DNA from: Candidatus Wolfebacteria bacterium
GTDB taxonomy: Bacteria > Patescibacteriota > Minisyncoccia > UBA6257 > UBA9933
NCBI GenBank assembly: GCA_016188075.1
Contig: JACPIO010000017.1
Location: forward strand, 23,406 to 87,405
Length of the DNA stretch: 64,000 bases
Direction of reading: 5' to 3'
The notes under the pieces were generated by a model that ran no database searches, was not told the origin of the DNA, and saw only the letters and a list, made by a program, of their open reading frames with translations. Each line of letters begins with the position of its first letter. Within the stretch, counting starts at the first letter, position 1. The translations under genes were made by a program, and so were the position numbers. Positions 10,461-41,990 of the stretch are shown in pieces.

Positions 10461-11725
10461 CCCGCAATCAAACAATCATCATCGGCGCCGGCGTGGTCGT
10501 TGTTATCGTCATTGTTTTGATTTTAGTCGGCGTTCTGCCCGGGCTTCAGAGCCCGACCGATAAGCCGCCGGCAGTCACGCTTACTGTCTGGGGCATTGAC
10601 GACCAGCCGGCTTTTAACGCTTTGATTGATGGTTATAAAAAAATCCGGCCCAATGCTTCAGTCCTCTACGCCCAAATCCCGGAAGCAAGCTACGAAGAAA
10701 ATCTTGTGAATTCTTTGGCGGCCGGAACCGGCCCGGATGTTTTTATGATCCCAAACGGCCTGATCCGAAAACATGGCGGAAAAATGTTGGCGGCGCCGGC
10801 AAATCAGCTTTCCTTAGGAATGCTTCGCCAGCTTTTCCCTCAAGTTGTCGAGCAAAATTTAGTGGTTCAAAATCAAATTTACAGCCTGCCGCTTTATTTG
10901 GATACCCTGGCGCTTTTTTACAACAAAGACATTTTTGACGCCAAGACCATTTCCCTGCCGCCCCAAACCTGGAAAGATTTTCAAAACATTATTCCTAAAA
11001 TTCGGGAAAATAATGAATCAAATCAGATTGTGAAAGCCGCGGCCGCGATCGGCGGATCAAAAATCAGCATTAAATCCGCCTCGGATATCTTAAATCTTTT
11101 AATGATGCAATTTGGTAATCCCAAAGTAACCACCGAGGAATCTATAAATTTTGACGATCAAGGCCTTCAAGCTTTAAATTTTTATCTCCAATTTGCGAAT
11201 CCCGTAAGTCCGTCCTATACCTGGAACGATAACTTGGGAAATTCGATTGACAATTTCAGTCAGGGAAAAACCGCGATGATTTTCGCCTACAACGGAGACG
11301 CGCCTCTAATTAAAGCTAAAAGTCCGTTTTTGAATTTCGGCATCGCGGCAATGCCCCAATTCAATTTATCCCAACCCGTAAACCAGCCGAATTACTGGGG
11401 ACTCGCTGTTTCCCGCCAAACCAAAAAAGCGGTCTGGGCATGGGATTTTATTATAAATACAACTACGAACCAATTGATTATCGAGAATTACATTCAAATC
11501 AAAGACCAGTCGCCGGGCCTCCGCACTTTAATCCAAAATTATGTTAATGATCCGAATCTCGGTGTTTTCGTAAAACAAGCCCTAACAGCCCGGGCTTGGC
11601 CCGAACCGGATCATAATTTAGTCGGGCAATCGTTTTCCAACGGCATTGCTTCGGTTTTAACCGGCCAAGTTTCGCCAAAACAAGCGCTGGATAGAATTAC
11701 CAATGAAATCAATGCGCTACAATGA
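10451..11725 (+). CDS. ABC transporter substrate-binding protein (family 1, sugar-type)
   Basis: 424 aa; N-terminal TM anchor, SBP_bac_1-like body. Confidence 0.65.
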
Positions 11726-12204
11726 AATATCAAAGATTAAAAATAAAAGATAAGATTTTTCCGTTTTTAATTTGTGTTTTTGCTTTTTGGTTTTTAATTT
11801 TTGATTTATTACCGGCGCATGCCGCCATCCTCCCTGCTCCGAGCGGTCCCGGCGGCCAATATAACTACTGCGACCTACTTCATTTAGGTCAAAACATTAT
11901 TAACTTTATCGTTTCCCTTATCTTCCCTATCGCCACGGTAATGGTTGTTGTCGGCGGAATTTTCATTATGACCGCCCGAGAAAAACCGGATCAAGCCAAG
12001 AAAGGCCGGGAAATCGCAACAGCTGCTGTGATCGGAATTCTTATTACCTTGCTCTCCTGGCTTATATTGGATACAATATTTAAAATAGTGGCTGGTAGGA
12101 GCCCGCAAGCAGGCGGCGGGCCAGCAGTAATTCAAGGGTTGGGCCGCCCATGGAACGAACTAAGATGTGGTAGCCTTCCTTATGGATCAAATCCGGGCTA
12201 CTAG
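11722..12204 (+). CDS. TrbC/VirB2-like pilin-family protein, paralog 1
   Basis: Signal peptide plus two hydrophobic helices separated by a short basic loop (…MTAREKPDQAKKGREIA…), matching VirB2/TrbC topology; first of five tandem paralogs. Confidence 0.45.
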   Translation: MKYQRLKIKDKIFPFLICVFAFWFLIFDLLPAHAAILPAPSGPGGQYNYCDLLHLGQNIINFIVSLIFPIATVMVVVGGIFIMTAREKPDQAKKGREIATAAVIGILITLLSWLILDTIFKIVAGRSPQAGGGPAVIQGLGRPWNELRCGSLPYGSNPGY

Positions 12205-12245
12205 AAATACGGATCAGGGACGTCGCAAGTCCTTAGGTTCAGAAA

Positions 12246-12650
12246 TTGGCGAAGAAAATGAACACCCAAAAATATCAAAAAATATCCATAAGTATCTATA
12301 AGTATCTTTTAATATCTGTAAGTATCTTTTTTTTGATTGCGAATGTTGTTTTGGCTCAAACCTATGACGCCGACCAAGCTGCCCGTGATCTCGCCAGAGG
12401 TTCACCAATTGACAGGCCGGAAAAAGTTTTTCTGGTTCTCAAAAAAATACTTCAGTGGACATACACCATTTTTTTTATAATGGCAGTCTATTTTCTTTTG
12501 CTGGCGGCCTTTACGTATTTGTCCGCCAGCGGTAATCCTGAAAAAATCAAAGCCGCTTCCAGCCAGCTTCTCTGGGGAATGGTCGCTATTGCCGTAGCCT
12601 TAATTTCTGTCGGGGCGGCAGCGATAATCAGGGGTTTTCTTACTCCTTAA
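12246..12650 (+). CDS. TrbC/VirB2-like pilin-family protein, paralog 2
   Basis: Signal peptide (…VVLAQT), helix - SASGNPEKIKAASS - helix. Confidence 0.5.
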   Translation: MAKKMNTQKYQKISISIYKYLLISVSIFFLIANVVLAQTYDADQAARDLARGSPIDRPEKVFLVLKKILQWTYTIFFIMAVYFLLLAAFTYLSASGNPEKIKAASSQLLWGMVAIAVALISVGAAAIIRGFLTP

Positions 12651-12694
12651 ATAAACTTCAGAGATTAAAATCGCTTGATCCTTCCAAATTTATA

Positions 12695-13120
12695 ATGAAT
12701 TTCCAAAAAATTATAAAAAATTCTAAAAAAATCTTGACTTTTTTCATCCTATTTTCCAACTTCTTGTTTCTCGTTCCGCATCCATTAGCTTTAGCGGCCA
12801 TCACTCCGGGCCAAGTTCCGACCGCGGGAGATTTAGACGTTACCCCCTCGCCGGTAAACAGCCCCCAAGACTTGGAACGGGTTACCAAGAACGCTACTAG
12901 CGGTTTTTATGTAAGTTTTTTTATTCTAGCTGTTCTGTTTATTTTAATTGCTGCTTATAAATATCTTTTTGCAATGGGAGACGTTGAAAAACTAAAAAGC
13001 GCTCGCCTTATGCTTATTTATGCGGCAATCGCTATTGCCGTGGCCTTAATGGCTGTTAGTTTCGAGCTGATTATTAAAAATTTTTTAGCTCTTCCCAATG
13101 CCGGGATCCCCAACCAATAA
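12695..13120 (+). CDS. TrbC/VirB2-like pilin-family protein, paralog 3
   Basis: Signal peptide, helix - AMGDVEKLKSARL - helix. Confidence 0.5.
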   Translation: MNFQKIIKNSKKILTFFILFSNFLFLVPHPLALAAITPGQVPTAGDLDVTPSPVNSPQDLERVTKNATSGFYVSFFILAVLFILIAAYKYLFAMGDVEKLKSARLMLIYAAIAIAVALMAVSFELIIKNFLALPNAGIPNQ

Positions 13121-13220
13121 ATAGGAAGTGTTTTATAAATACCTTGAAATTTTCTTCTTAATACCTTAAAATTAAACTATATAAAAGTAAAAAGGTCGAA
13201 ATAAACTTTATCAATCTAAA

Positions 13221-13619
13221 ATGAAATTAACAAACAACAAAAAAATCTTCATAGTCGGCGGAATAACAATTTTAACCTTATTACTAGCAACATCCGCCTT
13301 GGCCCAAAATCCTGATCCTACAACACGGACCGGCATAAGTCGTATAGCGGGAGTCCCAACAAACCCAAACGAACTCCTTACTAGGGTAGGCGACTTCGTA
13401 AGATGGGCATATATTCTCTTTTTTATTCTAGCTGTTCTGTTTGTTCTGATTGCAGCCTATACCTACCTTACAGCTGCTGGCAACCAGGAAAAAATCGATA
13501 AGGCTAAAACTATGCTGATTTACTCTGCCGTTGCGGTTGCTGTGGCCTTAATGGCAATAGTATTTAACACTATTATAGGAGGATTCGTCGGTGGTGGCGG
13601 CGCCATCCCCAATCCATAA
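13221..13619 (+). CDS. TrbC/VirB2-like pilin-family protein, paralog 4
   Basis: Signal peptide (SALAQN), helix - AAGNQEKIDKAKT - helix, Gly-rich C-terminus. Confidence 0.5.
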   Translation: MKLTNNKKIFIVGGITILTLLLATSALAQNPDPTTRTGISRIAGVPTNPNELLTRVGDFVRWAYILFFILAVLFVLIAAYTYLTAAGNQEKIDKAKTMLIYSAVAVAVALMAIVFNTIIGGFVGGGGAIPNP

Positions 13620-13776
13620 GTCATTAACTATCCCCCGCACTCTTGGTTATTTAATGGTTAGTGCGGGGCAGGGCCAAGAACGATATTTTTTATTGTTTTT
13701 CGCCCTGCCCGGTAGTAGACCCTGCCCAATTTTACGATTTAATCTTACGACTTACGATGTCGTAAATAATTAATAC

Positions 13777-14163
13777 TTGCTAATGTCTAAATTTTTTAGA
13801 AAAATTTTTTACGCAGCGGTGGTTTCCTTTTTACCGATCTTTTTTATAAGATTAAAGGTTTTCGCAACAGAGGTTGGTGGCACAAGCGGCCAAACCTATA
13901 CCCTTCAAGACCCTCTCGGCAACCAAAATATTCTTACCATCATAGGCCGGGTTATTGACTACCTAATTTACATTAGCGTTCCGCTCCTTGCCTTATTTAT
14001 TCTCTGGGGCGGTTTTCAGATTTTGGGCGCCAGAGGCGATGTGGAAAAAGTCAAAAACGGCCGGGCCACTATTCAATGGGCAGTCATCGGCTTTACGATT
14101 ATTTTAGTATCAAAAGGAGTAGCTCTTATTCTTTTAAGAATTTTGTACCCTTCTAGCCCCTAA
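13777..14163 (+). CDS. TrbC/VirB2-like pilin-family protein, paralog 5
   Basis: TM, helix - GARGDVEKVKNGRA - helix. Confidence 0.45.
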   Translation: MLMSKFFRKIFYAAVVSFLPIFFIRLKVFATEVGGTSGQTYTLQDPLGNQNILTIIGRVIDYLIYISVPLLALFILWGGFQILGARGDVEKVKNGRATIQWAVIGFTIILVSKGVALILLRILYPSSP

Positions 14164-14719: not shown

Positions 14720-15811
14720 TTACGGCCTCCTTCCGAGAAGAGCAGTGAGCGCAGCACTCACCACCCCTCGACTCTCGGACGAAATGGTCACTTTTTTCTC
14801 ATCGATCGTCTTCTTTACCTTATCGCGCTCGGTCTGGACGATTTCGAGCGCTTGTTCCGGCGTAAAGTTAAGGGGGGCGGCCATGAGCTCTCGAATCCTC
14901 TCGCGCACATGTTCGAGCTCAATCCGTTCAGCCTCCCTCTGCCGCTCTTCTCGTCGAGCCTTCTCGTAATCCTCCTGTACTTCTGGAGGTCGAGAGAGCT
15001 CACCAACGAGCACTTCGATAACATCAATACCCCATTCGATGGCTCGTTGGTCAGCCCGGCGTTGGATACCGTCGAGTATGAGATCCCTTGCAGCCACCGC
15101 GTCGTCATCGTTTAAAGTCCTGACGGTGGAACGCAGATTCTGTTGGACGAGCTCGACCAAACTTCTGTCGATTACCTCCTCGCCAACAGAGAGTACCTGC
15201 CCGGGGTTTTCAACCCGCCAGCGGATTGCCGACGGCTCCACGGTGATCCGAACGTTATTCGACGAAATCACGGTGAATTTATCGGCCCGAGAACTCCTTT
15301 CGCGTGCATCTACCGCCTCGGCAGCCATAATGGGCCGAGGCAATATCCAACTCCACCCCTCGGAAAGTTCGTAACGGGCGCGAACCAACCCCACTTCTTC
15401 CGGAGTTCCGTCGGGCAACGGACGTATTGCGGTAAACCGTTGCAGCAGACGTCCTCCAAAAATAGTCGGCACACCCCGGTGAGCAATGGGAATCGAGATT
15501 AATCCGGCCACTCCGAAGTAGCCGAAAACGACGAAAGCTACCCCTATATTGTAAGGCCAAGAGATAAGGGTGTATGCGACACCCGTTAATACTCCGACGA
15601 GGAGAATTCCGAGAAGAAACGACCGAACTCGGCTGAGTCTTCGGGGTTCTTCGTCACCGCCCCAAGGCGAGATCGAAGGGGCACTAGGAGGAGTAGGCGG
15701 GGTAGTTATAGCCGTTGTCGGTCGGCGCCCACGGCGCCCAAGAAGGTACCCCAACAAGGCCACGAGAAGCCCTACTACACCGACACCTATCCATGTCCAC
15801 ATCGCATCCAT
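14720..15811 (-). CDS. SPFH/band-7 (stomatin/prohibitin/HflK-C-like) domain protein
   Basis: 363 aa; two N-terminal TM helices, SPFH core and a long Glu/Arg coiled coil (EDYEKARREERQREAERIELEHVRERIREL). Markedly higher GC than the surroundings. Confidence 0.7.
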   Translation of the reverse strand: MDAMWTWIGVGVVGLLVALLGYLLGRRGRRPTTAITTPPTPPSAPSISPWGGDEEPRRLSRVRSFLLGILLVGVLTGVAYTLISWPYNIGVAFVVFGYFGVAGLISIPIAHRGVPTIFGGRLLQRFTAIRPLPDGTPEEVGLVRARYELSEGWSWILPRPIMAAEAVDARERSSRADKFTVISSNNVRITVEPSAIRWRVENPGQVLSVGEEVIDRSLVELVQQNLRSTVRTLNDDDAVAARDLILDGIQRRADQRAIEWGIDVIEVLVGELSRPPEVQEDYEKARREERQREAERIELEHVRERIRELMAAPLNFTPEQALEIVQTERDKVKKTIDEKKVTISSESRGVVSAALTALLGRRP

Positions 15812-16024: not shown

Positions 16025-16156
16025 TAATCCAAACGCCAGCAATTCCTCGCCGCTTGTATCGAGGATGAATGGCGCAACTAAGAATCTCGGCGGAGCCGAC
16101 CCTTATTGGATCGAACCCGCCCTGATGCCGCGCCGCTTGCGGCGCGGACGGGTTCA
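16025..16156 (+). repeat. ~135-nt structured repeat element, copy 3
   Basis: First hairpin variant CCTCGCCGCTTGTATCGAGG, short-loop terminal hairpin. An inverted fragment of the same element (catcctcgccgcaagcggcgagg) lies at 16564-16586. Confidence 0.8.
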
Positions 16157-16201
16157 CTCCTCCGCCAATCTTACATTAACCTTGTATTCCCCCAACTCGC
16201 T

Positions 16202-17658
16202 GCTACGTTTAAACGTAGCAGTGAGAACGTAGCAACGAGGGAGGAACGCCGACAGACGAAAAACCCAGGGGAGCAAAAACCATTAAAACTCTTTTCCTTA
16301 GGAGCCGGCTTGATGATAAATCAAACAATTCTGTCCGCTACGTTTAAACGTAGCGGCGAGGCATACATCAAAAATACAGAGAATGACCGACCGAAAGAAA
16401 TCAATCAGTTCCTCCCGTTCGTTCTCCTGCTCGAAATTAATACTCCGTAGTTAACGTTTCGCAAAATTTTAGAGTTGCGCTCGCGTCATTATCTTTCACG
16501 ACATTATCTTTTAAAACTGCCTGCTACGTTTAAACGTAGCAGGCAGGATAACCATAAAACATCCTCGCCGCAAGCGGCGAGGTATTCGGCGATTAGCGCC
16601 ATAAACAAACTTTTGAAAAGATATTCCAATCTAAAAAGATATTCCGGGCGAAAACTAAAGTTGATCAAGAAAATCCCAGCGACCCCTTCCCTTGTAGGCC
16701 GGAATTTTTCTTCTTTTGTACCGCGGTTCGCGGAATCTTAACGGAATATTTTTTAATTTCTTATCCGGGTTGATTTTTTCCCTCCTTTTTAATCCCCTTT
16801 TCACAAAACTAATGGTGTCGGGACTTACGTCAACAATTTCACCTATTTTCCGGTAAGTTAAACCGCGTTCCAAAAGCAAGAGAGTCGCCAATCTTCTTTC
16901 AAGAAGATTAATTTCGCTTCCCGAAAGAAATTTATTTAAACCGCAGAGCAAGTCTTTTTCGGAGGTTGCTCCCCTTATCTCCGTCAAGAACTTTTGCCAT
17001 GCCGCCCTCTTCAAAATCTCCCCTATGTATTTTTTATTAACATTGACCATCTTTTTATTCTTTTAACCATTACTCCGGCTCCATTCACCATTCTAACAGT
17101 CTTTTGCTAATCCTTAAATTATAAAACAAGTAATTATATATTGCTATGTTTAAACATAGCAGGTTAACTGAAAAAGAAGGGTAGAAGGGCTCCGGATTCT
17201 ATTATCTCTATATCAGCATGAGTGACGTCAGTATATCAATATAAACGATATCAGCAGAGATCATTTCGGCGCAGGACGATTCTCTTCGATCTGCTACGTT
17301 TAAACGTAGCAGACAGAGTAAGGATAATCGCAGCTTAGCCAAAAAAACCAGTCCAAATTGCAAAACTATTATTTTCTCTCCACTACGTTTAAACGTAGCG
17401 CGCAGGGTAGGAATAGACAGAAGATGGTCGAGTAACTGGCGCGAATAAACAGCGGCTCCGAATACACGACAGCCGAGAAAGCAAGAGGGGCAAATATTTT
17501 CAGAAAGCAATACTGCGAAAAATACCGCAATGCTACGTTTAAACATAGCAGCGAGACGTAAATCAACTACCTCGCGGTTAGCACTCGCAAAATTTTGAAT
17601 TTATGCTCGTAACGCTATCGTCTAACTTCTAAAATTGCACGCTACGTTTAAACGTAGC
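16202..17658. repeat. array of eight 18-bp perfect palindromes GCTACGTTTAAACGTAGC (irregular spacing)
   Basis: Cores at 16202, 16336, 16523, 17143, 17293, 17382, 17532 and 17641. Flanks extend the palindrome differently in each copy (a perfect 30-mer at 16517-16546). The copy at 17143 carries a compensatory C>T/G>A pair. Confidence 0.85.
16655..17050 (-). CDS. TrpR-like (YerC/YecD family) helix-turn-helix protein
   Basis: 131 aa; ...LTYRKIGEIVDVSPDTISFVKRGLKR matches the Trp-repressor/YerC HTH; basic C-terminal tail. Sits inside the palindrome array. Confidence 0.6.
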   Translation of the reverse strand: MVNVNKKYIGEILKRAAWQKFLTEIRGATSEKDLLCGLNKFLSGSEINLLERRLATLLLLERGLTYRKIGEIVDVSPDTISFVKRGLKRREKINPDKKLKNIPLRFREPRYKRRKIPAYKGRGRWDFLDQL

Positions 17659-17743
17659 ACGTCGCTCTAGGGCGACGAAATTTCAAAAGTGAAAGTAGGA
17701 ATAAAAATGAAAATGAGAAAGAAACGAGGAAGAAAAGATAGAA

Positions 17744-17772
17744 TTGACGACAGGCGACAATTAAATTAAATT
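17744..17772 (+). promoter_or_regulatory. promoter candidate for tRNA-Leu(UAG) (TTGACG-17-TAAATT)
   Basis: -35-like TTGACG at 17744 and -10-like TAAATT at 17767, about 8 nt before the tRNA 5' end. Confidence 0.3.
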
Positions 17773-17779
17773 AAATGGT

Positions 17780-17865
17780 GGGCGAGTGGCGGAACTGGAA
17801 TACGCGTACGCCTTAGAAGCGTATGGACTATGTCCTTGAGGGTTCGAATCCCTCCCCGCCCACCA
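17780..17865 (+). tRNA. tRNA-Leu (UAG), CCA encoded
   Basis: Type II cloverleaf: GGGCGAG/..CCCGCCC acceptor (one A-C mismatch), anticodon loop CTTAGAA, long variable arm, T-arm GAGGGTTCGAATCCCTC, then ACCA. A start at 17777 is an alternative parse. Confidence 0.75.
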
Positions 17866-17876
17866 CAGAATTATCA

Positions 17877-18161
17877 ATGTATTATGTTTACATTTTACAA
17901 AGCTTGAAAGATAATCGCACTTATGTTGGTTATACTCAAAATATCACCAACAGGTTGCATCAACACAATAATGGCGAGGTAAGGGCTACTGCAAACAGGC
18001 AACCATTCAAGTTGTTGTATCTAGAGGAGTGTCAAAACTTAATCGAAGCTAAAAGTAGGGAAAATTATTGGAAATCTGGTGGCGGCAGAAGAAAGCTTAA
18101 AAAATATTTTTTGGATGGGTTCCCGCCCCGATTATCATCGGGGCGAGGCTCGCCCAAATAG
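17877..18161 (+). CDS. GIY-YIG nuclease superfamily protein (YhbQ/UPF0213-like)
   Basis: MYYVYILQSLKDNRTYVGYTQNITNRLHQHNNG...: YVY...YVGYT...RL.QH is the GIY-YIG core. Lies immediately 3' of the tRNA-Leu gene. Confidence 0.65.
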   Translation: MYYVYILQSLKDNRTYVGYTQNITNRLHQHNNGEVRATANRQPFKLLYLEECQNLIEAKSRENYWKSGGGRRKLKKYFLDGFPPRLSSGRGSPK

Positions 18162-18226: not shown

Positions 18227-21200
18227 TTAGCGCGAGAAGAGTTTCAAAAGCTCCGCGATTTTTGTTTGAAGCAGAGAAACATTGGCTATAAGCTCCGCGG
18301 GATTGGCGTAGAGAGTGGTTGAGGTCGAAATCGGGGTTGAGGTCGCGTACGGCGGAGTCGAAGTAACGGAATAGCCTACTGCAGGAACAACCGTTATTGT
18401 ATTACCAGCTGCTGATTGAATTCCGGCCGGAATAGAGGCGTTGGAGTTTCGTCCGTAAGCCCGGATATCGGAGGCTGAACCAATGGCAAAAATGTATTGT
18501 CCGCCCGAAGAAGCTCCGCCGGAGATAAGTGGAGCGACGTCAGCTCGCAATTCCAACTCAATAGCGCTATTTTGCGGGACAATGGCCGGGATTGAAAGAT
18601 TAAAGACGTAAACCCAAGTGTCTCTATTAGTTGAACTGGCAATGATTGGTCCAGCCACCACCGTGCCGCTATTCAATAATCTGGCATTTTGGAAAGATGG
18701 CGTTGTCGCGTTGTTGGTCGAGACTGCGGTTATGGTTAAAGCGTCAACCCTAATTGGTTCGGCGGAGTTGTTGGCAAAACGAAAGGTGGCTAAACTGTTA
18801 TTGACTGATCCCATCACCACTTGCGTGGACGACGCGGTATTTGGGCTAATGGATACTCTAAGAAAGGCTGACGTATCCGGCGTGGGCGGAGGATTGCCAG
18901 TTGCTGGCGCCCCGGCAACACGGCGGCAAACATCAAATTGAAGCATTTTCTGGATTGTTAGATTCCCGACAATGCCTGTGCCATTCGGGTTAAGTCCTCT
19001 CGCGATTAGAGCATCGCGCAGGTAATCACGTTGAAATGCTTTTACGGCATCAAAGGTTGGATTAAGAATCAAGTCGAATGAGTAATGTCTATCCTCCAGA
19101 TGCCCGATAAATTGACGGATGGATGAATCCGGGTAAGCGCTTGGATTTATATATCCCAAACTCACCAAACACTCCTGGACCTGGGCTTTTTGAGTCGTGG
19201 TTAGATTTACCGCGGAAATATCCGGGTCAAGTGGGCCGCCGAATCTTCTCAATGGCAATCCAGCACCACCACTCCCTGGCCCTCCTATACCACCCATACC
19301 ACCAGCCGTACCTCCTATACCACCTGGTCCACCTCCAGATGCAGCAGCTTCTGCAGCGGCGGCCGTTGCTGCTGCCTCTGCTTGTTCCGCTAGTCCTTGC
19401 GCTCCCGCAGAAGGACCCGCGGTATCTGACGCTCCGCCGCCAGCTTGAGAAACCGTCCCTCCTGCGCCTGTCGAAGAAATAATCGGTCCTTGATTGGCGC
19501 ACAATTGATTTAATTTTCTTTTTGTATAAGTGCCGACAATGCCCGTGCCGTTTTCTCGGCCGCCAGAAGTGTAAATTTCCGAGGAAAATTGATTTTGAAT
19601 TAGTATAACCGATGACGAGGTTTGAGGCCCAAAGGTACCCAAGCCAAGAGCTTCGCTACTAGGCAAAGTAAATTGAGCAGACGGAATCGTTGCCAAACAT
19701 TGTTGTAATCGAACAACTTGGCTTCTATTGTTGTTGGGTGAATCTCGGCGCAACTCCGTTGAATCATTGTAAAGATCAAAAAGCGGTCCCCGAACTGCCG
19801 GCAAAATCTCAAAATTCAAAAGATTAGCTGTGTCAAAAACATTACTACCGGTAATCGCGGTGTGAACTCTTAAGACAAGACTGGAGAGTTCCGAAACGTC
19901 GCGGAAGGTCAAGCGAACCGAAGTACCGCGCGTCAAATCATACTGGGTTTCCGGGTTAAAACTTTCAATCCGGGCGTTTTGAGACACATAACTCCACTTA
20001 ACCCGATCACGGCAAATCTGTCCTTCTCGGCAGAAAGGGGCGGCCCAGGTAAAAGTGGCGGATTCTCCGGCGTTAAATCTGGTTTTTCCGTCCGGCAAAA
20101 GAGAGAAATTAGAGTTGCCTAAGTTGGGAACAAGGGCTTGGGCTGTGGCCGGCGAAGTTAAGGGACCAGAAGTCGGCGCGCCAGAACCAGGAGCAACTAC
20201 TCCGGGACCGCCAGTTCGCGGTCCGACTGTTACTGAAATACTTCTTCTGCCTATTTCGCCTTGGCCAAACGCGGTAGTCGAAAAAAGCGCTCTCAAAACA
20301 ATGTTGACGGTTCTCGAAGTGCTCGTGCTGTTAGTGATTAAAACTTGAGCCGGGAACAAAGTTTCGTGGAAATTATAAGGACCGTTACCTTGTCTTCCGC
20401 AGTATTCTCGGCCGGCATAACCAACGGTCACTGCGTTATCGTCATTTCCTTCACAGCCAAGAGTAATAATGGGAGAAAAACCAAGACCCGGCCGCTTGGA
20501 CGCATTCAGAGCTACCGTGGTTCCGGAATTAATTGTTATAGATGTAACTGGAGTCGGATTGCTTGCGGAGATGGCGGTAAAAGATGAAATAACCGGGCCA
20601 GAGTCAGCAACGCCCGAGTCAGGAGACGGCGCCGAAAGAGTTTGAACCACCCTAAAGATACCCGCGTTAGTGCTTGGGGCAGACCGCGCTCCGGGAATGG
20701 CAACTGGCCTCCCGCCTAACCAGTAGTAACCGTCGGGCACAATATAATACTGATCCGGCATAATCACCCCCAACGTATTTGAGCTTGCCGCTGGAGTGGG
20801 ATTAAGAGGATTACCGATAAAATACGGGTTATCGCCGTTATAATTTACAGCAATAGTGTCGCCGACTTGGGCCCCGGATCCGATATTAGCCTTGATAGTT
20901 AAAAGTCTGTAGCTGCCGCGAGGAATTCTAACCGGAGTTGTTAATTCAATAAAAGTGGCATTAAGAAATGCAGATGCTGAGAAATTTGCGCTGCCGACAT
21001 TGACTGCGCCGTTCCACAAGGTGAGTCCGTTTATAGCCCGCGGGTTGGTGCCACCGAATTTCAATCCAATCCGCCGGAGATCAATGTCATAGCTATCTGA
21101 AGCGAGACGCAAAATTGTTGTTGTAGTATTTTGGGAGTTGGCAAGAACTTCCAAGTTGCCACCGCGCGGCGAGGTATCGTCGAGAGTTATCGTAAAGGCG

Positions 21201-23047
21201 CCGGTCGTTGGAGCAGGAGTCTGGGTAGGCGAAGGAGTGGCGCCCACCGCAGAGCTTGACCCTACGGCAATGGACACGCTTTTTTGGTCGCTCAATACAT
21301 TGCTTGAGGGATTGGTATTGCTATAAACGCTGTAAGTTTTCAGAATCAGAGTAATTGTTTTTTGAGTATTGGCGCTGTTCGTTAAACGAACCAAAGCCGG
21401 AAAAGTGCTAATAATAACTCCATAAGGCCCGTTTATAACATGATTGTCCGCCGGATGATGACCGCAATAAACTTGGTTATTAGAAACCAAGACTAACGAA
21501 ACATCGCCGCTATCATTGCCCTGGCATTCAAGAGTAGCGGCGGCAACGTTTGCTTCGGAATTTAAACGGGCAGTTAAAGTATTAGATCCGCCGGAATTTA
21601 CATACGGAGAAAAGGCGCTGAAGCTTGAAAGGGCCGGCGCAGGCGTTGGAGTTGGAGTTGGTGTTGGTGTTGGTGTTGGTGTTGGTGTTGTGGCTGGCGC
21701 GCTAACCGTTATTGTGAACGGGCTAGTTTGAGCCGAACAATTGCTTTCGTCAGACGAAGCACAAGCCCAGCCGTAGAGATAATAATTGCCCGTCGCAAGG
21801 GTTGGTGAGATATTCAGGATATAAGGATTAGCTGCGCCGACGGAGGTCCGTGGAAAAGATGATACGCCATCATATCTCAAGCTAAAGTGATTGACCGTAC
21901 CACTTACGCCAAGAAAGCTAACCTGGATAGAGGTAGCGCCCTGGGTGACGGCGGAGGGGGCTGAAACCGAAGAAAGAGTTGGCGCCGGAGTCGGGGTTGA
22001 CGAGACCGGCGCGCTCACAGTCGCGGTTGTGGTTTTGTATGGAGAAGGGGTGCCGTCGTTTTTGAAAGCAGCTCCTTGGAGTTCATAAGCTCCGGCGGTA
22101 GTGGGTGTAAAAGAAATTCCGGTACAGAATCCGGTTACGGCAGTAGCAGGATTCCATACGGACGTTCCCTGAACTCTATACTGGAACCCGCAGAAATCAT
22201 TACTGGCGTACCCACTAAAGTTTACGGTCATCTGATTTCCAAGCGTCACCGAGTTCGCCGAGATACTGGTGAGGGTTGGAGTGGTTGGCGTCGGAGTGGG
22301 AGCCGGAGAAACCGTAACAGTAACCACGCTATTGCTGGATCTGCTGTTATCAGCGCCCAGGGCATAAAGAGTAAAAGTGACCAATCCGGGAGATATGCTG
22401 CTATTATTTACGGTAACGACATTACTGGAATTACTAACAACGTTGGCAGGAACATTAGGGGTAAATCCCGGAATAGAAATACTGGGGTTATCCGAAGAAA
22501 AAGAAAGCCAGCCGCTTACGGCATTTTGAGCCGAAGTGTTTAAGGTTACGTTCGATCCAGATGGAACCGTGGTTCCGTTCTGAGGCGAAGAAAGAGAGGC
22601 GGTTACCGGCGGAGCAGCGATGGTAAACGTGTCCGTGGTCGCACCAATTGGCATTGATTGGCCGTCTTTGGATCCATTCCAGTATACGTTAACGGTGTGA
22701 GTGCCGACATTATTGAAAGTGCAGGTGGCGCTATAAGATCCGCCGCAGTTATTAAGATAGGTTCCGTCGAGATTCACGGTCATTATGCCAGCAATCCCCC
22801 AATTGGAAGGCGGCTGACTCGGATAAGTTCCGGTTGAATCACTGCGATAAACCGAAGCATTGAGCGTGGCGGTACTTCCCGAGACGGTAACGGCTGTAAA
22901 GTTGCAAAAACCAAAAGTTGACAAAGTGTAGCCCGGCACCGCGGCGCATTTAGTATCGGCCTGGGCTTCTTTTGTCAAAATCCCCCCGAAAACTCCGAGG
23001 AAAACGACCGCTAATAATATAATGAAAAAATACTTAAAATTTTTCAT
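18227..23047 (-). CDS. giant secreted/cell-surface protein (1606 aa) with PG-binding-like domain
   Basis: Signal peptide MKNFKYFFIILLAVVFLGV; many Thr/Pro linkers (TPTPTPTPTPTPTPTPAP), Ser/Thr/Asn-rich beta-rich segments, a Gly-rich stretch. Near the C-terminus is a PG_binding_1-like segment (TQKAQVQECLVSLGYI...FDAVKAFQRDYL...GTGIVGNLT). Confidence 0.7.
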   Translation of the reverse strand: MKNFKYFFIILLAVVFLGVFGGILTKEAQADTKCAAVPGYTLSTFGFCNFTAVTVSGSTATLNASVYRSDSTGTYPSQPPSNWGIAGIMTVNLDGTYLNNCGGSYSATCTFNNVGTHTVNVYWNGSKDGQSMPIGATTDTFTIAAPPVTASLSSPQNGTTVPSGSNVTLNTSAQNAVSGWLSFSSDNPSISIPGFTPNVPANVVSNSSNVVTVNNSSISPGLVTFTLYALGADNSRSSNSVVTVTVSPAPTPTPTTPTLTSISANSVTLGNQMTVNFSGYASNDFCGFQYRVQGTSVWNPATAVTGFCTGISFTPTTAGAYELQGAAFKNDGTPSPYKTTTATVSAPVSSTPTPAPTLSSVSAPSAVTQGATSIQVSFLGVSGTVNHFSLRYDGVSSFPRTSVGAANPYILNISPTLATGNYYLYGWACASSDESNCSAQTSPFTITVSAPATTPTPTPTPTPTPTPTPAPALSSFSAFSPYVNSGGSNTLTARLNSEANVAAATLECQGNDSGDVSLVLVSNNQVYCGHHPADNHVINGPYGVIISTFPALVRLTNSANTQKTITLILKTYSVYSNTNPSSNVLSDQKSVSIAVGSSSAVGATPSPTQTPAPTTGAFTITLDDTSPRGGNLEVLANSQNTTTTILRLASDSYDIDLRRIGLKFGGTNPRAINGLTLWNGAVNVGSANFSASAFLNATFIELTTPVRIPRGSYRLLTIKANIGSGAQVGDTIAVNYNGDNPYFIGNPLNPTPAASSNTLGVIMPDQYYIVPDGYYWLGGRPVAIPGARSAPSTNAGIFRVVQTLSAPSPDSGVADSGPVISSFTAISASNPTPVTSITINSGTTVALNASKRPGLGFSPIITLGCEGNDDNAVTVGYAGREYCGRQGNGPYNFHETLFPAQVLITNSTSTSRTVNIVLRALFSTTAFGQGEIGRRSISVTVGPRTGGPGVVAPGSGAPTSGPLTSPATAQALVPNLGNSNFSLLPDGKTRFNAGESATFTWAAPFCREGQICRDRVKWSYVSQNARIESFNPETQYDLTRGTSVRLTFRDVSELSSLVLRVHTAITGSNVFDTANLLNFEILPAVRGPLFDLYNDSTELRRDSPNNNRSQVVRLQQCLATIPSAQFTLPSSEALGLGTFGPQTSSSVILIQNQFSSEIYTSGGRENGTGIVGTYTKRKLNQLCANQGPIISSTGAGGTVSQAGGGASDTAGPSAGAQGLAEQAEAAATAAAAEAAASGGGPGGIGGTAGGMGGIGGPGSGGAGLPLRRFGGPLDPDISAVNLTTTQKAQVQECLVSLGYINPSAYPDSSIRQFIGHLEDRHYSFDLILNPTFDAVKAFQRDYLRDALIARGLNPNGTGIVGNLTIQKMLQFDVCRRVAGAPATGNPPPTPDTSAFLRVSISPNTASSTQVVMGSVNNSLATFRFANNSAEPIRVDALTITAVSTNNATTPSFQNARLLNSGTVVAGPIIASSTNRDTWVYVFNLSIPAIVPQNSAIELELRADVAPLISGGASSGGQYIFAIGSASDIRAYGRNSNASIPAGIQSAAGNTITVVPAVGYSVTSTPPYATSTPISTSTTLYANPAELIANVSLLQTKIAELLKLFSR

Positions 23048-24256: not shown

Positions 24257-25270
24257 ATGGAACCAGAAGAAAATTCAAACATTGCGCCTTCCTCATCCCT
24301 TATTCCCGAACCGCCGGAAAAGCCGGTATCCGCGGAAATTTCAGAGCTGGCCGCGCCAACCGAGCCGGTTTCCACTCCGGCTCCTTCTGATATTCCATTT
24401 TCTCCCCGGCCTCCGATAAATCCGCCCGCCCTAAAAAGGAAATTTCCCGAGGCGATTTTTCAGATTGAAACTGACAAAATCAAACCCAATCCGCATCAGC
24501 CGCGCCGCGACTTTGACGAAGACTCCCTAAAGGAACTGGCGGCTTCCATCCGGGAACTGGGCATTCTTCAGCCGCTCGTTGTCTCTAAAATCGAAAAAGA
24601 AACAGATCGCGGCACGGACGTGGAATACGAACTTATAGCCGGCGAACGGCGTTTGATGGCCGTGAAAATACTTGGCTGGGAAAGAGTGCCGGCAATCGTT
24701 CGAACCGTTGATTCCCAATCCGAAAAATTAGAAATGGCCGTGGTGGAAAATCTCCAGCGGTCGAATTTGAATCCGCTGGAAACCGCTCGAGCCTACGCCA
24801 AACTTCAGGACGAATTCCGGCTGACTCAAAGAGAAATCGGCGCCAAAATCGGCAAAAGCCGGGAGACGGTTTCCAACACCTTAAGACTTTTGAATCTGCC
24901 CACGGAAATCCAGGATGCCCTGGCAAAAAACCAAATAAACGAAAGCCAGGCGCGGCTCTTGCTTCAAATCGAAGACCCGAAAGAGCAGCAAATAATTTTC
25001 GAGGATTTATTAAGCCGTAATTTAAGCGTCCGAGAATTAAAATCAAGAATCCGGAAAACCAAACCCCAAAAAACTTCCGGCGAATCCGCTCCGACATTCA
25101 AAGCCACTGATCCGGAAATTCTGAATTTGGAGGAAAAATTAACGGAAATTTTAGGAGCCAAAGTGCAAATTCAAAAAACCGAAGCCGGCGGAAAAATCAT
25201 CATTGATTTTTATTCGGCGGAAGAAATCAAGGGCATTCTCCAGAAATTAAATCCTCATCCGCAAAACTAA
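24257..25270 (+). CDS. parB: chromosome partitioning protein ParB/Spo0J
   Basis: 337 aa; Pro-rich N-terminal extension, ParB box ELIAGERRLMAVKILGWERVPAIV, HTH LTQREIGAKIGKSRETVSNTLRLL. Confidence 0.85.
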   Translation: MEPEENSNIAPSSSLIPEPPEKPVSAEISELAAPTEPVSTPAPSDIPFSPRPPINPPALKRKFPEAIFQIETDKIKPNPHQPRRDFDEDSLKELAASIRELGILQPLVVSKIEKETDRGTDVEYELIAGERRLMAVKILGWERVPAIVRTVDSQSEKLEMAVVENLQRSNLNPLETARAYAKLQDEFRLTQREIGAKIGKSRETVSNTLRLLNLPTEIQDALAKNQINESQARLLLQIEDPKEQQIIFEDLLSRNLSVRELKSRIRKTKPQKTSGESAPTFKATDPEILNLEEKLTEILGAKVQIQKTEAGGKIIIDFYSAEEIKGILQKLNPHPQN

Positions 25271-41641: not shown

Positions 41642-41990
41642 TGGTGGAGATGAGGGTATTGAAACCCTGTCCAAAAATTAACTTTAAAAATTTCTACAGG
41701 TTTAGTCCCGATGAATGAAGGATTAAGGAATGAAATCGGGACGAAAAATCCTTAATTCTTTGCCGATTTTTGTCCCCGCCAAAATTGGCAATTTAGGCGG
41801 GCTAGTCTAATTTATTACACCCGAACCTCTTGATTCAGACACCCAAGAGCGGATGCCGCTTAGGCAAAAGCGAAAGCGGGAGCTAATCTGTTATTGGCAG
41901 ATATAGTTTTGATTCGATGATTTTCAAGGTGACGAATCATCCTTGACCTGCGATTTTTAAAGATCATTTCTGTCGAGGCCTTGCATCCCC
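41642..41990 (-). ncRNA. ssrA: tmRNA (SsrA)
   Basis: 5' GGGGATGCAAGGCCTCGACAG... and 3' ...GGACAGGGTTTCAATACCCTCATCTCCACCA. G3-U70 wobble in the acceptor (Ala identity), T-arm-like hairpin. Candidate tag ORF GCC AAT AAC AGA TTA GCT CCC GCT TTC GCT TTT GCC TAA (ANNRLAPAFAFA*). Adjacent to smpB. Confidence 0.75.

Follow-up and report, generated by a model that had tools for sequence, protein, structure and literature searches.

A 64,000-nt stretch of contig JACPIO010000017.1 from a Candidatus Wolfebacteria genome (hereafter the window) contains an island, at positions 16,025 to 17,865, in which copies of an 18-bp palindrome surround a single gene encoding a 131-aa TrpR-like helix-turn-helix (HTH) protein. 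This island is probably the expanded operator array of an autoregulated, Patescibacteria-specific repressor of the TrpR family that is bracketed by its own sites. In the proposed mechanism the protein would dimerise as TrpR does and read the palindrome through two 5-bp half-sites with 8 bp between them. Binding to copy 4 (17143), directly upstream of its own gene, would result in autoregulation, and the copies across the gene and farther out would serve as extra binding sites for looping, bridging, titration or roadblocking. The canonical module would be that of the relatives, in which a single site precedes the gene and another follows it; in the window lineage the number of sites would have increased to eight, at least in part by segmental duplication, and the gene segment would have been inverted. 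The sites are predicted to be prone to hairpin formation, and either selection for hairpins or cruciforms or template-switching during replication may keep their symmetry and extend it into the flanks. We infer binding, repression, dimerisation, looping or titration, any ligand and the identity of the controlled neighbours from the sequence.

A search of the window with GCTACGTTTAAACGTAGC, allowing up to 3 mismatches, identified eight sites, all of which lie within 1.46 kb (16202-17658); no site was found in the remaining ~62 kb. The chance expectation was 0.03 sites, and none of 100 shuffled sequences reached eight. Copies 1, 2, 3, 5 and 8 are exact and the other three contain 1-2 mismatches (Table 1). 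The eight copies claimed in a preliminary description of this DNA are therefore correct if near-copies are counted, not as exact copies, and its spacings of 95-627 bp are incorrect, the start-to-start values being 135, 186, 620, 150, 89, 150 and 109 bp (range 89-620 bp). The 22-nt duplex form of the palindrome is CTGCTACGTTTAAACGTAGCAG. Beyond the 18-mer, copies 1 to 8 are extended by 2, 2, 6, 1, 3, 1, 1 and 0 paired bases, respectively, so that differing flanks do lengthen most of the palindromes, up to a perfect 30-mer at copy 3, as had been described. The reported compensatory double substitution was also found, at copy 4, where the perfect palindrome is 20 nt long.

The largest gap in the array (620 bp) holds the only credible gene of the island, that of the TrpR-like protein, which is also the only open reading frame (ORF) inside the array with a family match; its start codon is 92 bp from copy 4, close to the ~95 bp first given. 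The other ORFs of the island were rejected as genes because, noise apart, Pfam gave no match to them at E<=0.1. They contain ATFKRS or LRLNVA, which is translated palindrome, in agreement with the preliminary description. An Rfam scan of 14-20 kb at E<=1 returned tRNA only, and the island therefore contains no known RNA family. Short palindromic repeats split by unrelated sequence are also what a degenerate CRISPR array would look like, but that explanation is effectively refuted. The spacings are irregular and the spacers unrelated, which is the argument that had already been made against CRISPR, and a tandem-repeat finder reported no array at the island. One of the "spacers" is a functional-looking gene, and the same architecture occurs in 22 other loci, always centred on the TrpR-like gene. 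The neighbouring proteins scanned with Pfam and PADLOC, which make up part of the 64 kb, gave no cas or defence matches. PADLOC found nothing for the regulator, the SPFH gene, the GIY-YIG gene or the neighbouring genes, and a defence island was rejected on this basis.

The association of gene and palindrome was examined across genomes. A scan for GCTAYGTTTAAACRTAGC in one genome per species (185,579 genomes) yielded only 25 stretches, nearly all of them single copies in unrelated bacteria. The sole multi-copy stretch, L015, came from another Wolfebacteria and contained two copies, 31 bp before and 22 bp after a homologue that is 44% identical to the window protein. Three exact copies of the 18-mer were present in the scanned metagenome-assembled genome (MAG) of L015, and IMG/VR contained one match, an isolated copy. 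The exact 18-mer is thus rare across these genomes, and its only multi-copy occurrence surrounds a homologous gene, which supports the earlier proposal. Homologous loci were then gathered from metagenomes and by exact-protein look-up, giving 22 loci besides the window that are not all independent lineages (L039 and L043, as well as L057 and L058, are close relatives). A locus-specific palindrome was observed beside the TrpR-like gene in 22 of 22 loci and on both sides of it in 21. These cognate palindromes are 16-18 bp long and number 2-9 per locus. Typically, a palindrome precedes the start codon by 1-92 bp and another follows the stop codon at 2-50 bp, and all cognate palindromes lie within ~600 bp of the gene except for one L037 site 2.7 kb away. 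As the same layout of gene plus palindromes is present in 22 loci, the eight copies of the window stand at the high end of a general design and are no exception. We conclude that the module represents a putative regulator family not described so far, and is no isolated curiosity; no description of this TrpR-like family was found in the searchable literature.

Cognate palindromes were also seen away from the gene. Another contig of the L015 MAG has a perfect 32-nt copy between the ends of two convergent genes (L025, 392-423), a 26-nt copy is intergenic in a different Patescibacteria MAG (L024, 5876-5901), and a 22-nt copy in L037 (1194-1215) lies 33 bp upstream of a Mur-ligase gene.

The window protein matches Pfam Trp_repressor (PF01371) with 34.5 bits (gathering score 27, E 2e-8), and precomputed PF01371 matches are also listed for every homologue that was looked up. 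The protein is identical to HYV91_02585 from a Candidatus Wolfebacteria MAG. A single-sequence word-based protein search returned only the query itself, while an exhaustive HMMER search identified 191 cluster representatives at E<=1e-3, nearly all of 120-165 aa. Members of the family have an N-terminal TrpR-like domain (residues 1-90), a basic linker and the C-terminal motif P-x-Y-x-G-K/R-G-R-W-x-F-L. The family profile found the TrpR-like PDB entries 3kor, 3g1c and 3frw at E 2e-10 to 4e-7 (3kor 1.8e-10) and E. coli TrpR at E ~1e-3. An AlphaFold model of the protein had a pLDDT of 85, and its top 23 fold matches in the PDB were all TrpR or TrpR-like, with probabilities of 0.87-1.00 and target TM scores of 0.5-0.7; the Foldseek E-values were weak (0.07-0.5) because the domain is small. 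By sequence and by predicted fold, which is all-helical as in TrpR with the HTH in helices D-E, the protein is a member of the TrpR family.

The geometry of the sites was read from the palindromes of 18 loci plus 4 more and compared with published TrpR and HisR motifs at the level of sequence. The common form of the palindrome is G[C/G]TNY-N8-RNA[G/C]C, i.e. 5+8+5 bp. TrpR monomers read a GNACT half-site with 8 bp between the half-sites (consensus TGTAcTnGTnnACnAgTACA), and HisR/YerC regulators use lineage-specific 20-bp palindromes (cacTTTAnnnnnnTAAAgtg), about half of these regulators being preceded by their own site (PMC9413887). Within a locus the arms are conserved and the central 4-6 bases are free to differ (L032, L047, L031 and L037), as expected if the arms are read. 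In the alignment, residues P77-D78-T79-I80-S81-F82 of the window protein correspond to I79-A80-T81-I82-T83-R84 of TrpR, which places residue 77 at Ile79, a DNA-contacting position of TrpR (contact residues from PMC9413887). Proteins with Pro77 (10 loci) or Ser77 (1 locus) are accompanied by the half-site N[C/A]TA, in which bases 2-4 are CTA or ATA, and those with Arg77 (8 loci) by NGT, in which bases 2-3 are GT; there were no exceptions in 19 loci. Arg-type proteins occupied at least three separate positions in a rough neighbour-joining tree, i.e. at least three switches. Two of the loci, L061 and L062, had been picked beforehand for Pro77, one of them from a distant branch, and both contain the predicted CTA-type site. 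Such covariation between residue 77 and the half-site is of the kind that would be expected from direct readout. Operators or decoy sites for the TrpR-like protein were among the roles first suggested for the palindromes, and the bracketing of the gene, the TrpR/HisR-like geometry, the residue-77 covariation and the rarity of the 18-mer lend comparative support to this putative role.

The module shares with E. coli TrpR the fold of the protein and 5-bp half-sites 8 bp apart in an 18-20 bp palindrome (PMC9413887). The ligand-binding Arg54 of TrpR was aligned by eye with an Arg53 that is invariant here. As in the case of trpR, a site ahead of the protein's own gene suggests autoregulation. In contrast to E. 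coli TrpR, the protein carries ~40 additional residues at its C-terminus, a basic tail with a conserved GKGRW motif, and has a Phe at the position of Arg84. Its sites have a different half-site sequence, flank the gene on either side and reach 8-9 per array, and no trp genes are nearby. The HisR/YerC-YecD proteins of Firmicutes include the solved structures closest by sequence (3kor, 3g1c and 3frw), and they also have lineage-specific palindromic operators, with about half of the regulators being autoregulated (PMC9413887). However, the window protein scored only 20.1 bits with the NCBIfam YerC/YecD model (TIGR02531) and two relatives scored 31-35 bits, all below the cutoff of 42.2, and the family is therefore a separate subfamily of the TrpR family. 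Of the original YerC/YecD (TrpR-like) HTH assignment, the TrpR part stands (PF01371 and fold) and the YerC/YecD part does not. The family also differs from HisR/YerC-YecD in its longer C-terminal tail, its multi-copy bracketing sites and their hairpin-extended flanks, and none of the loci showed his genes in the neighbourhood. The basic C-terminal tail, the two-sided sites, the arrays of up to nine and the hairpin-extended flanks are new compared to known TrpR members.

Several observations weigh against an operator array. The residue-77 covariation was counted over loci without phylogenetic correction. The half-sites vary widely but the recognition helix (TISFVK) hardly varies at all, and specificity would therefore rest on few residues. 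No helical phasing of the spacings was seen in the window array. Many proximal sites lie 1-30 bp from the start codon or in the end of the upstream ORF (L015 and L047); sites within the 3' end of the upstream ORF or abutting the start codon are present in L015, L047, L049 and L037. A roadblock or an element of the 5' untranslated region fits such start-proximal sites better than a classical promoter operator does. A promoter would not be expected at the orphan site of L025, which has convergent gene ends on either side, and a roadblock or a role at the RNA level is easier to picture at such sites than promoter occlusion. A promoter scan identified no consensus promoter overlapping copy 4; by eye, the weak candidates TAGCAA-17-TATAAT (window) and TAGCAA-17-TTTAAT (L015) overlap the right arm of the palindrome. 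Lastly, a footprint of the size of TrpR does not require perfect palindromes of 30-40 nt with non-conserved flanks.

The flanks were analysed at 55 sites. Dyad symmetry extended past the shared core by a mean of 3.2 bp, compared to 0.44 bp in offset controls, and extensions of at least 3 bp were found at 25 of the 55 sites and in 1.8% of the controls. The extensions vary among the copies of one locus but stay complementary, resulting in perfect palindromes of 30-40 nt; in L055 the flank pairs are TGTTTT/AAAACA at one site and AATTTAAT/ATTAAATT at another, and in the window the extensions include CT, CC, CTGCCT and TCT. Symmetric double substitutions occurred at copy 4 of the window and at position 2277 of L050. 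All of this would be expected if the palindromes functioned mainly as nucleic-acid hairpins, either as terminator-like, stabilising or RNase III-type stems in RNA or as hairpins or cruciforms in single-stranded DNA, with the protein being incidental or structure-binding. The central 4-6 nt, which vary as a loop might, and the copies directly after stop codons and at convergent gene ends fit this explanation as well. Nevertheless, we consider it unlikely, as structure alone leaves unexplained both the arm sequence that is shared on the two flanks of the gene and the tracking of arm sequence with protein residue 77. The predicted DNA hairpins of the window range from -4.5 to -16.3 kcal/mol, with copy 3 being the strongest (-16.3 kcal/mol), and copies 6-8 are no better than shuffled sequences although their sequence has been kept. 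What the eight copies share is sequence, not hairpin strength. A terminator scan gave no stem-plus-T-tract call coinciding with any palindrome, and a separate GC-rich terminator-like hairpin is present for the gene, copy 3 lying just past it; canonical intrinsic terminators were thus rejected as an identity for the palindromes. Single mismatches on the sense strand were G.T in 7 cases and A.C in 3, a difference that is not significant and numbers that are too few to separate the RNA level from the DNA level. Moreover, replication template-switching is able to perfect and extend quasi-palindromes and to make compensatory changes in a single event, with no need for selection (PMC7202029, PMC8794818). 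The flank symmetry therefore points to selection for hairpins or cruciforms in DNA or RNA, to template-switching, or to both, as the two are not exclusive. Selection for hairpin formation or for a symmetric protein site had been proposed from the array itself, and the hairpin part of that proposal is independently backed by the complementary, non-conserved flanks.

A second family of GC-rich hairpins was seen at 16042-16065, 16125-16148 and 16560-16583, with the sequence CCTCGCCG-CAAG/CTTG-CGGCGAGG and relatives and a CUUG-type tetraloop on one strand. One member provides the TrpR-like gene with its terminator-like element, and the other two are to the left of palindrome 1.

The operator array appears to have grown at least in part by duplication. 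Pairwise alignment of the flanks upstream of copy 3 (73 nt) and copy 8 (65 nt) gave 46 identical positions and a score ~5.7 standard deviations above shuffled sequences, and therefore at least one copy arose by duplication of a flank together with its palindrome. This segmental duplication is the one detectable origin of a palindrome copy, and repeated insertion of a palindromic element, another of the origins first suggested, received no clear support; none of the other window flanks gave an alignment beyond ~10 bp. The syntenic comparison that had been recommended was possible with L052, another Wolfebacteria, which contains genes for a pilin of the type IV secretion system (T4SS) type and a Band_7/SPFH protein, the TrpR-like gene, a tRNA-like sequence, ParA/ParB and RelA. 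The tRNA-like sequence, directly downstream of the module, was read by eye and not by a tRNA scan. At this syntenic position L052 has the TrpR-like gene with only two cognate sites, which bracket it, and the gene points to the tRNA, whereas the window gene points away from it; the noncoding DNA of the two islands shows no similarity. The two-site module and the opposite gene direction indicate that the window lineage inverted the gene segment and multiplied the sites. Copy 4 is the best candidate for the ancestral operator because it is nearest to the start codon, has the sequence of the operator-like site of the L015 homologue and is unlike the other seven copies of the window; it is probably the autoregulatory operator.

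Two further pairs of loci bear on the history of the module. L039 (1-660) and L043 (3773-4580), from the same study, have flanks that are 99.7% identical and a ~700-bp cassette with 71% DNA identity and 52% protein identity, the palindrome centre being CCAA in one and TTAA in the other. This cassette comprises the 3' end of a Na/Ca exchanger gene and the TrpR-like gene, and runs through the last palindrome. Its left breakpoint is inside the upstream gene, which suggests homologous replacement, not site-specific insertion. In L050 (1975-3280) and L051 (1400-2720) the noncoding nine-site array is 96-99% identical and the flanking pilin-like proteins are 81-89% identical, a contrast that may just reflect fast pilin evolution. 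Of the L050 sites, two are degenerate where their L051 counterparts are perfect. Both the inversion in the window and the L039/L043 replacement may be traces of recombination around the module. The 3' end of tRNA-Leu has no second copy in the window and there is therefore no att-type repeat, so that tRNA-linked integration was rejected.

RAYT (REP-associated tyrosine transposase) genes are flanked by cognate repetitive extragenic palindromes (REPs), and the two co-diverge. The module is similar in layout only, a single-copy gene between cognate hairpin-forming palindromes with which it co-diverges. The gene and its palindromes could in principle be a small selfish or recombinogenic cassette of this kind with an HTH protein, in which case the palindromes would be its ends, and their spread, duplication and inversion would be by-products of its activity. 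The inverted orientation relative to the conserved flanking genes of L052, the L039/L043 cassette, the varied genomic contexts of the relatives, the orphan copies with similar extended stems on the other contig of the L015 MAG and the breakage of short-read contigs at the array could all be accommodated by such a cassette. Even so, we regard it as quite improbable. The protein, an HTH domain plus basic tail of ~130 aa, has no catalytic or transposase domain; only TrpR and HTH families match, not HUH/Y1 transposases. Palindromes are not dispersed in large numbers, as none lie outside the island of the window and only three exact copies are in the scanned L015 MAG. A REP/RAYT system was rejected on these two grounds. 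No target-site duplications were seen, although no systematic search was made. The position of the module is stable over deep divergence (inside split comEC at 30-54% protein identity) and is next to SPFH/ParB in two Wolfebacteria. The L039/L043 breakpoint inside a gene is as expected for homologous recombination. The phage, plasmid and IMG/VR collections contained no member of the family; a phage, plasmid or virus origin was rejected accordingly.

The breakage of contigs was seen in four short-read assemblies with the identical gene (L027-L030 from Logan; SRR12113422, -24, -28 and -30), all of which stop ~93 bp past the stop codon, beside the 30-nt palindrome of copy 3. The array therefore evidently breaks de Bruijn assemblies, and such arrays may be under-represented in metagenome bins.

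A more speculative alternative, to which we give little credence, is that the gene and its palindromes together form a novel, self-contained hairpin-DNA element. The basic-tailed HTH protein would recognise its own extruded palindromes, as cruciforms or single-stranded hairpins, and this recognition would promote or direct their duplication and inversion and, occasionally, their dispersal, with a REP/RAYT-like logic but no HUH enzyme. Such an element might be tied to incoming single-stranded DNA, because one in three loci is located within DNA-uptake genes.

Clusters of sites around the promoter or gene of a small binder are known from the plasmid centromeres ParR-parC and SopB-sopC, the latter with a 16-bp inverted repeat per unit. 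The window array resembles these in that many copies of a short site cluster around the gene of a small putative binder. A full-length ParB (ParB_N, HTH_ParB and ParB_C) is encoded at 24257-25270, 6.6 kb from the array, gyrA is 5.7 kb away, and the canonical parS TGTTNCACGTGAAACA was found neither in the 64 kb at <=3 mismatches nor, at <=2 mismatches, in any relative locus examined, including L052, which carries ParAB. The array could thus be thought of as a partition or origin-proximal centromere-like site of the nearby ParAB, either a non-canonical parS or an iteron cluster. This is very improbable. Most of the other loci have no ParAB nearby, the palindrome differs by lineage while parS is highly conserved, and the cumulative GC skew has no clean turning point at the island. 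Plasmid centromere arrays also differ from the module, which has no consistent partner NTPase, is irregularly spaced and chromosomal, and is absent from plasmid and phage collections. With no match to TGTTNCACGTGAAACA, parS itself was rejected.

The surroundings of the putative repressor gene and its sites in the window agree with the islet and tRNA borders originally given (Table 1). The SPFH/Band_7 gene is in a stretch of 54% GC (14.0-16.0 kb, compared to ~45% elsewhere) that also holds a 151-aa ORF without family matches. Farther to the left, at 11722-14163, are four consecutive paralogous small genes of the T4SS_pilin family (PF18895), and the pilin/Band_7 order is common to L052. Directly after tRNA-Leu(tag) is a small gene with a GIY-YIG domain (17880-18161, + strand). 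Its longest ORF (17823-18161) overlaps the 3' end of the tRNA and the true start is therefore probably an internal ATG near 17880. The 1606-aa ORF at 18227-23047 (- strand) is without a Pfam match at E<=0.001, is rich in Thr/Ser/Pro/Ala repeats and has a hydrophobic segment at its N-terminus; its product is probably a large surface protein. An ordinary transfer-messenger RNA gene (41642-41990, - strand) encodes the tag peptide ANNRLAPAFAFA.

Table 1. Features of the palindrome island in the window, followed by the cognate palindromes and gene neighbourhoods of the related loci
Feature	Coordinates	Strand	Remarks
SPFH/Band_7 gene	14720-15811	-	Left border of the island, in the 54% GC stretch
Palindrome copy 1	16202-16219	.	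Exact 18-mer; perfect 22-mer 16200-16221; 435 bp 3' of the TrpR-like stop codon
Orphan half-site ACGTAGC	16227-16233	.	14 bp start-to-start from the right arm of copy 1
Palindrome copy 2	16337-16354	.	Exact; perfect 22-mer 16335-16356; flanks C/G versus T/A in copy 1
Duplicated flank	16450-16522	+	Upstream of copy 3; second copy 17576-17640, upstream of copy 8
Palindrome copy 3	16523-16540	.	Exact; perfect 30-mer 16517-16546; 114 bp 3' of the stop codon
Terminator-like GC-rich hairpin with T-rich tail	16563-16582	-	Looks like the intrinsic terminator of the TrpR-like gene
TrpR-fold HTH protein gene, 131 aa	16655-17050	-	Pfam Trp_repressor; basic C-terminal tail; proposed palindrome binder
Palindrome copy 4	17143-17160	.	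GCTATGTTTAAACATAGC; symmetric C5>T/G14>A pair; 92 bp 5' of the start codon
Palindrome copy 5	17293-17310	.	Exact; perfect 24-mer 17290-17313
Palindrome copy 6	17382-17399	.	ACTACG..., 1 mismatch; outermost pair A.C (+ strand), G.T (- strand)
Palindrome copy 7	17532-17549	.	...AACATAGC, 1 mismatch; hybrid of GCTACG left arm and CATAGC right arm
Palindrome copy 8	17641-17658	.	Exact; flank extension 0; ~86 bp upstream of a tRNA-Leu promoter-like site
tRNA-Leu(tag)	17780-17865	+	Right border of the island
Palindromes of L052			GATACGTTTAAACGTATC, 2 copies
Palindromes of L031			GGTCTAA-N4-TTAGACC, 2 copies
Palindromes of L032			GCTATA-N6-TATAGC, 3 copies
Palindromes of L037			GCTCTAA-N4-TTAGAGC, 5 copies
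Palindromes of L038, L047			GGTATAA-N4-TTATACC, 2 copies each
Palindromes of L043			GGTTTAATTAATTAAACC, 3 copies
Palindromes of L039, L049			GTTTAA-N4-TTAAAC, tandem pairs
Palindromes of L050			GTCCAA-N4-TTGGAC, 9 copies
Palindromes of L055			GCTACCGCATGCGGTAGC, 2 copies
Palindromes of L060			CTACCGCATGCGGTAG, 4 copies
Palindromes of L057, L058			GCTATCC-N4-GGATAGC, 3 copies each
Palindromes of L059			GTCTCTTATAAGAGAC, 3 copies
Palindromes of L056			GGTCTGA-N4-TYRGACC, 2 copies
Palindromes of L061			ACTACGATATATCGTAGT, 2 copies
Palindromes of L062			GCTATAG-N4-CTATAGC, tandem, only upstream of the gene
Palindromes of L063			GCGCCTATTAATAGGCGC, 4 copies
Neighbourhood of L015, L038, L047			TrpR-like gene between ComEC N-part (DUF4131 + Competence) and separate ComEC Lactamase_B part
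Neighbourhood of L039, L043, L049			TrpR-like gene convergent with ComFC-type gene
Neighbourhood of L050, L051			TrpR-like gene between pilin-like genes and PilB
Neighbourhood of L057, L058			TrpR-like gene after PilC and pilins

About a third of the loci have the TrpR-like gene in a DNA-uptake context (Table 1), and the neighbours in the remaining loci are unrelated housekeeping genes. These contexts amount to ~4 independent cases among roughly 13, which corresponds to a rough binomial p of ~0.003 on the assumption that ~5% of positions adjoin DNA-uptake genes. In the three loci with a split comEC (ORFs at 3596-6440 in L015, 2517-5293 in L047 and 5-1907 in L038) the TrpR-like gene and two palindromes lie exactly between the two parts, and in L015 the upstream palindrome is translated as the final residues of the ComEC N-part (AMFKHS). 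The best 120 ComEC-N homologues are all ~480-500 aa long and without a Lactamase_B domain; the split is therefore ancient and general in the clade, and a recent disruption of ComEC by insertion was rejected. No comEC, comFC or pilB is present in the 64-kb window. The gene neighbourhoods in the relatives are suggestive of a link between the module and DNA uptake.

Patescibacteria, also known as the Candidate Phyla Radiation, have tiny genomes, few regulators and few cultured members, and almost nothing is known of their transcription factors and the sites these recognise. The module would provide a regulator-operator pairing that is ready for in vitro testing, as the cognate site can be read from each genome and a one-residue rule (Pro/Ser77 versus Arg77) predicts the half-site. 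In addition, the long perfect palindromes with non-conserved flanks are a natural data set for comparing hairpin selection with template-switch mutation. If binding fails, the association of gene and palindromes would need an explanation other than an operator, which would make it more interesting, not less. Patescibacteria are thought to depend on DNA uptake for nucleotides, and the placement of the module at split comEC, comFC and type IV pilus genes would make the TrpR-like protein a first candidate regulator of this process.

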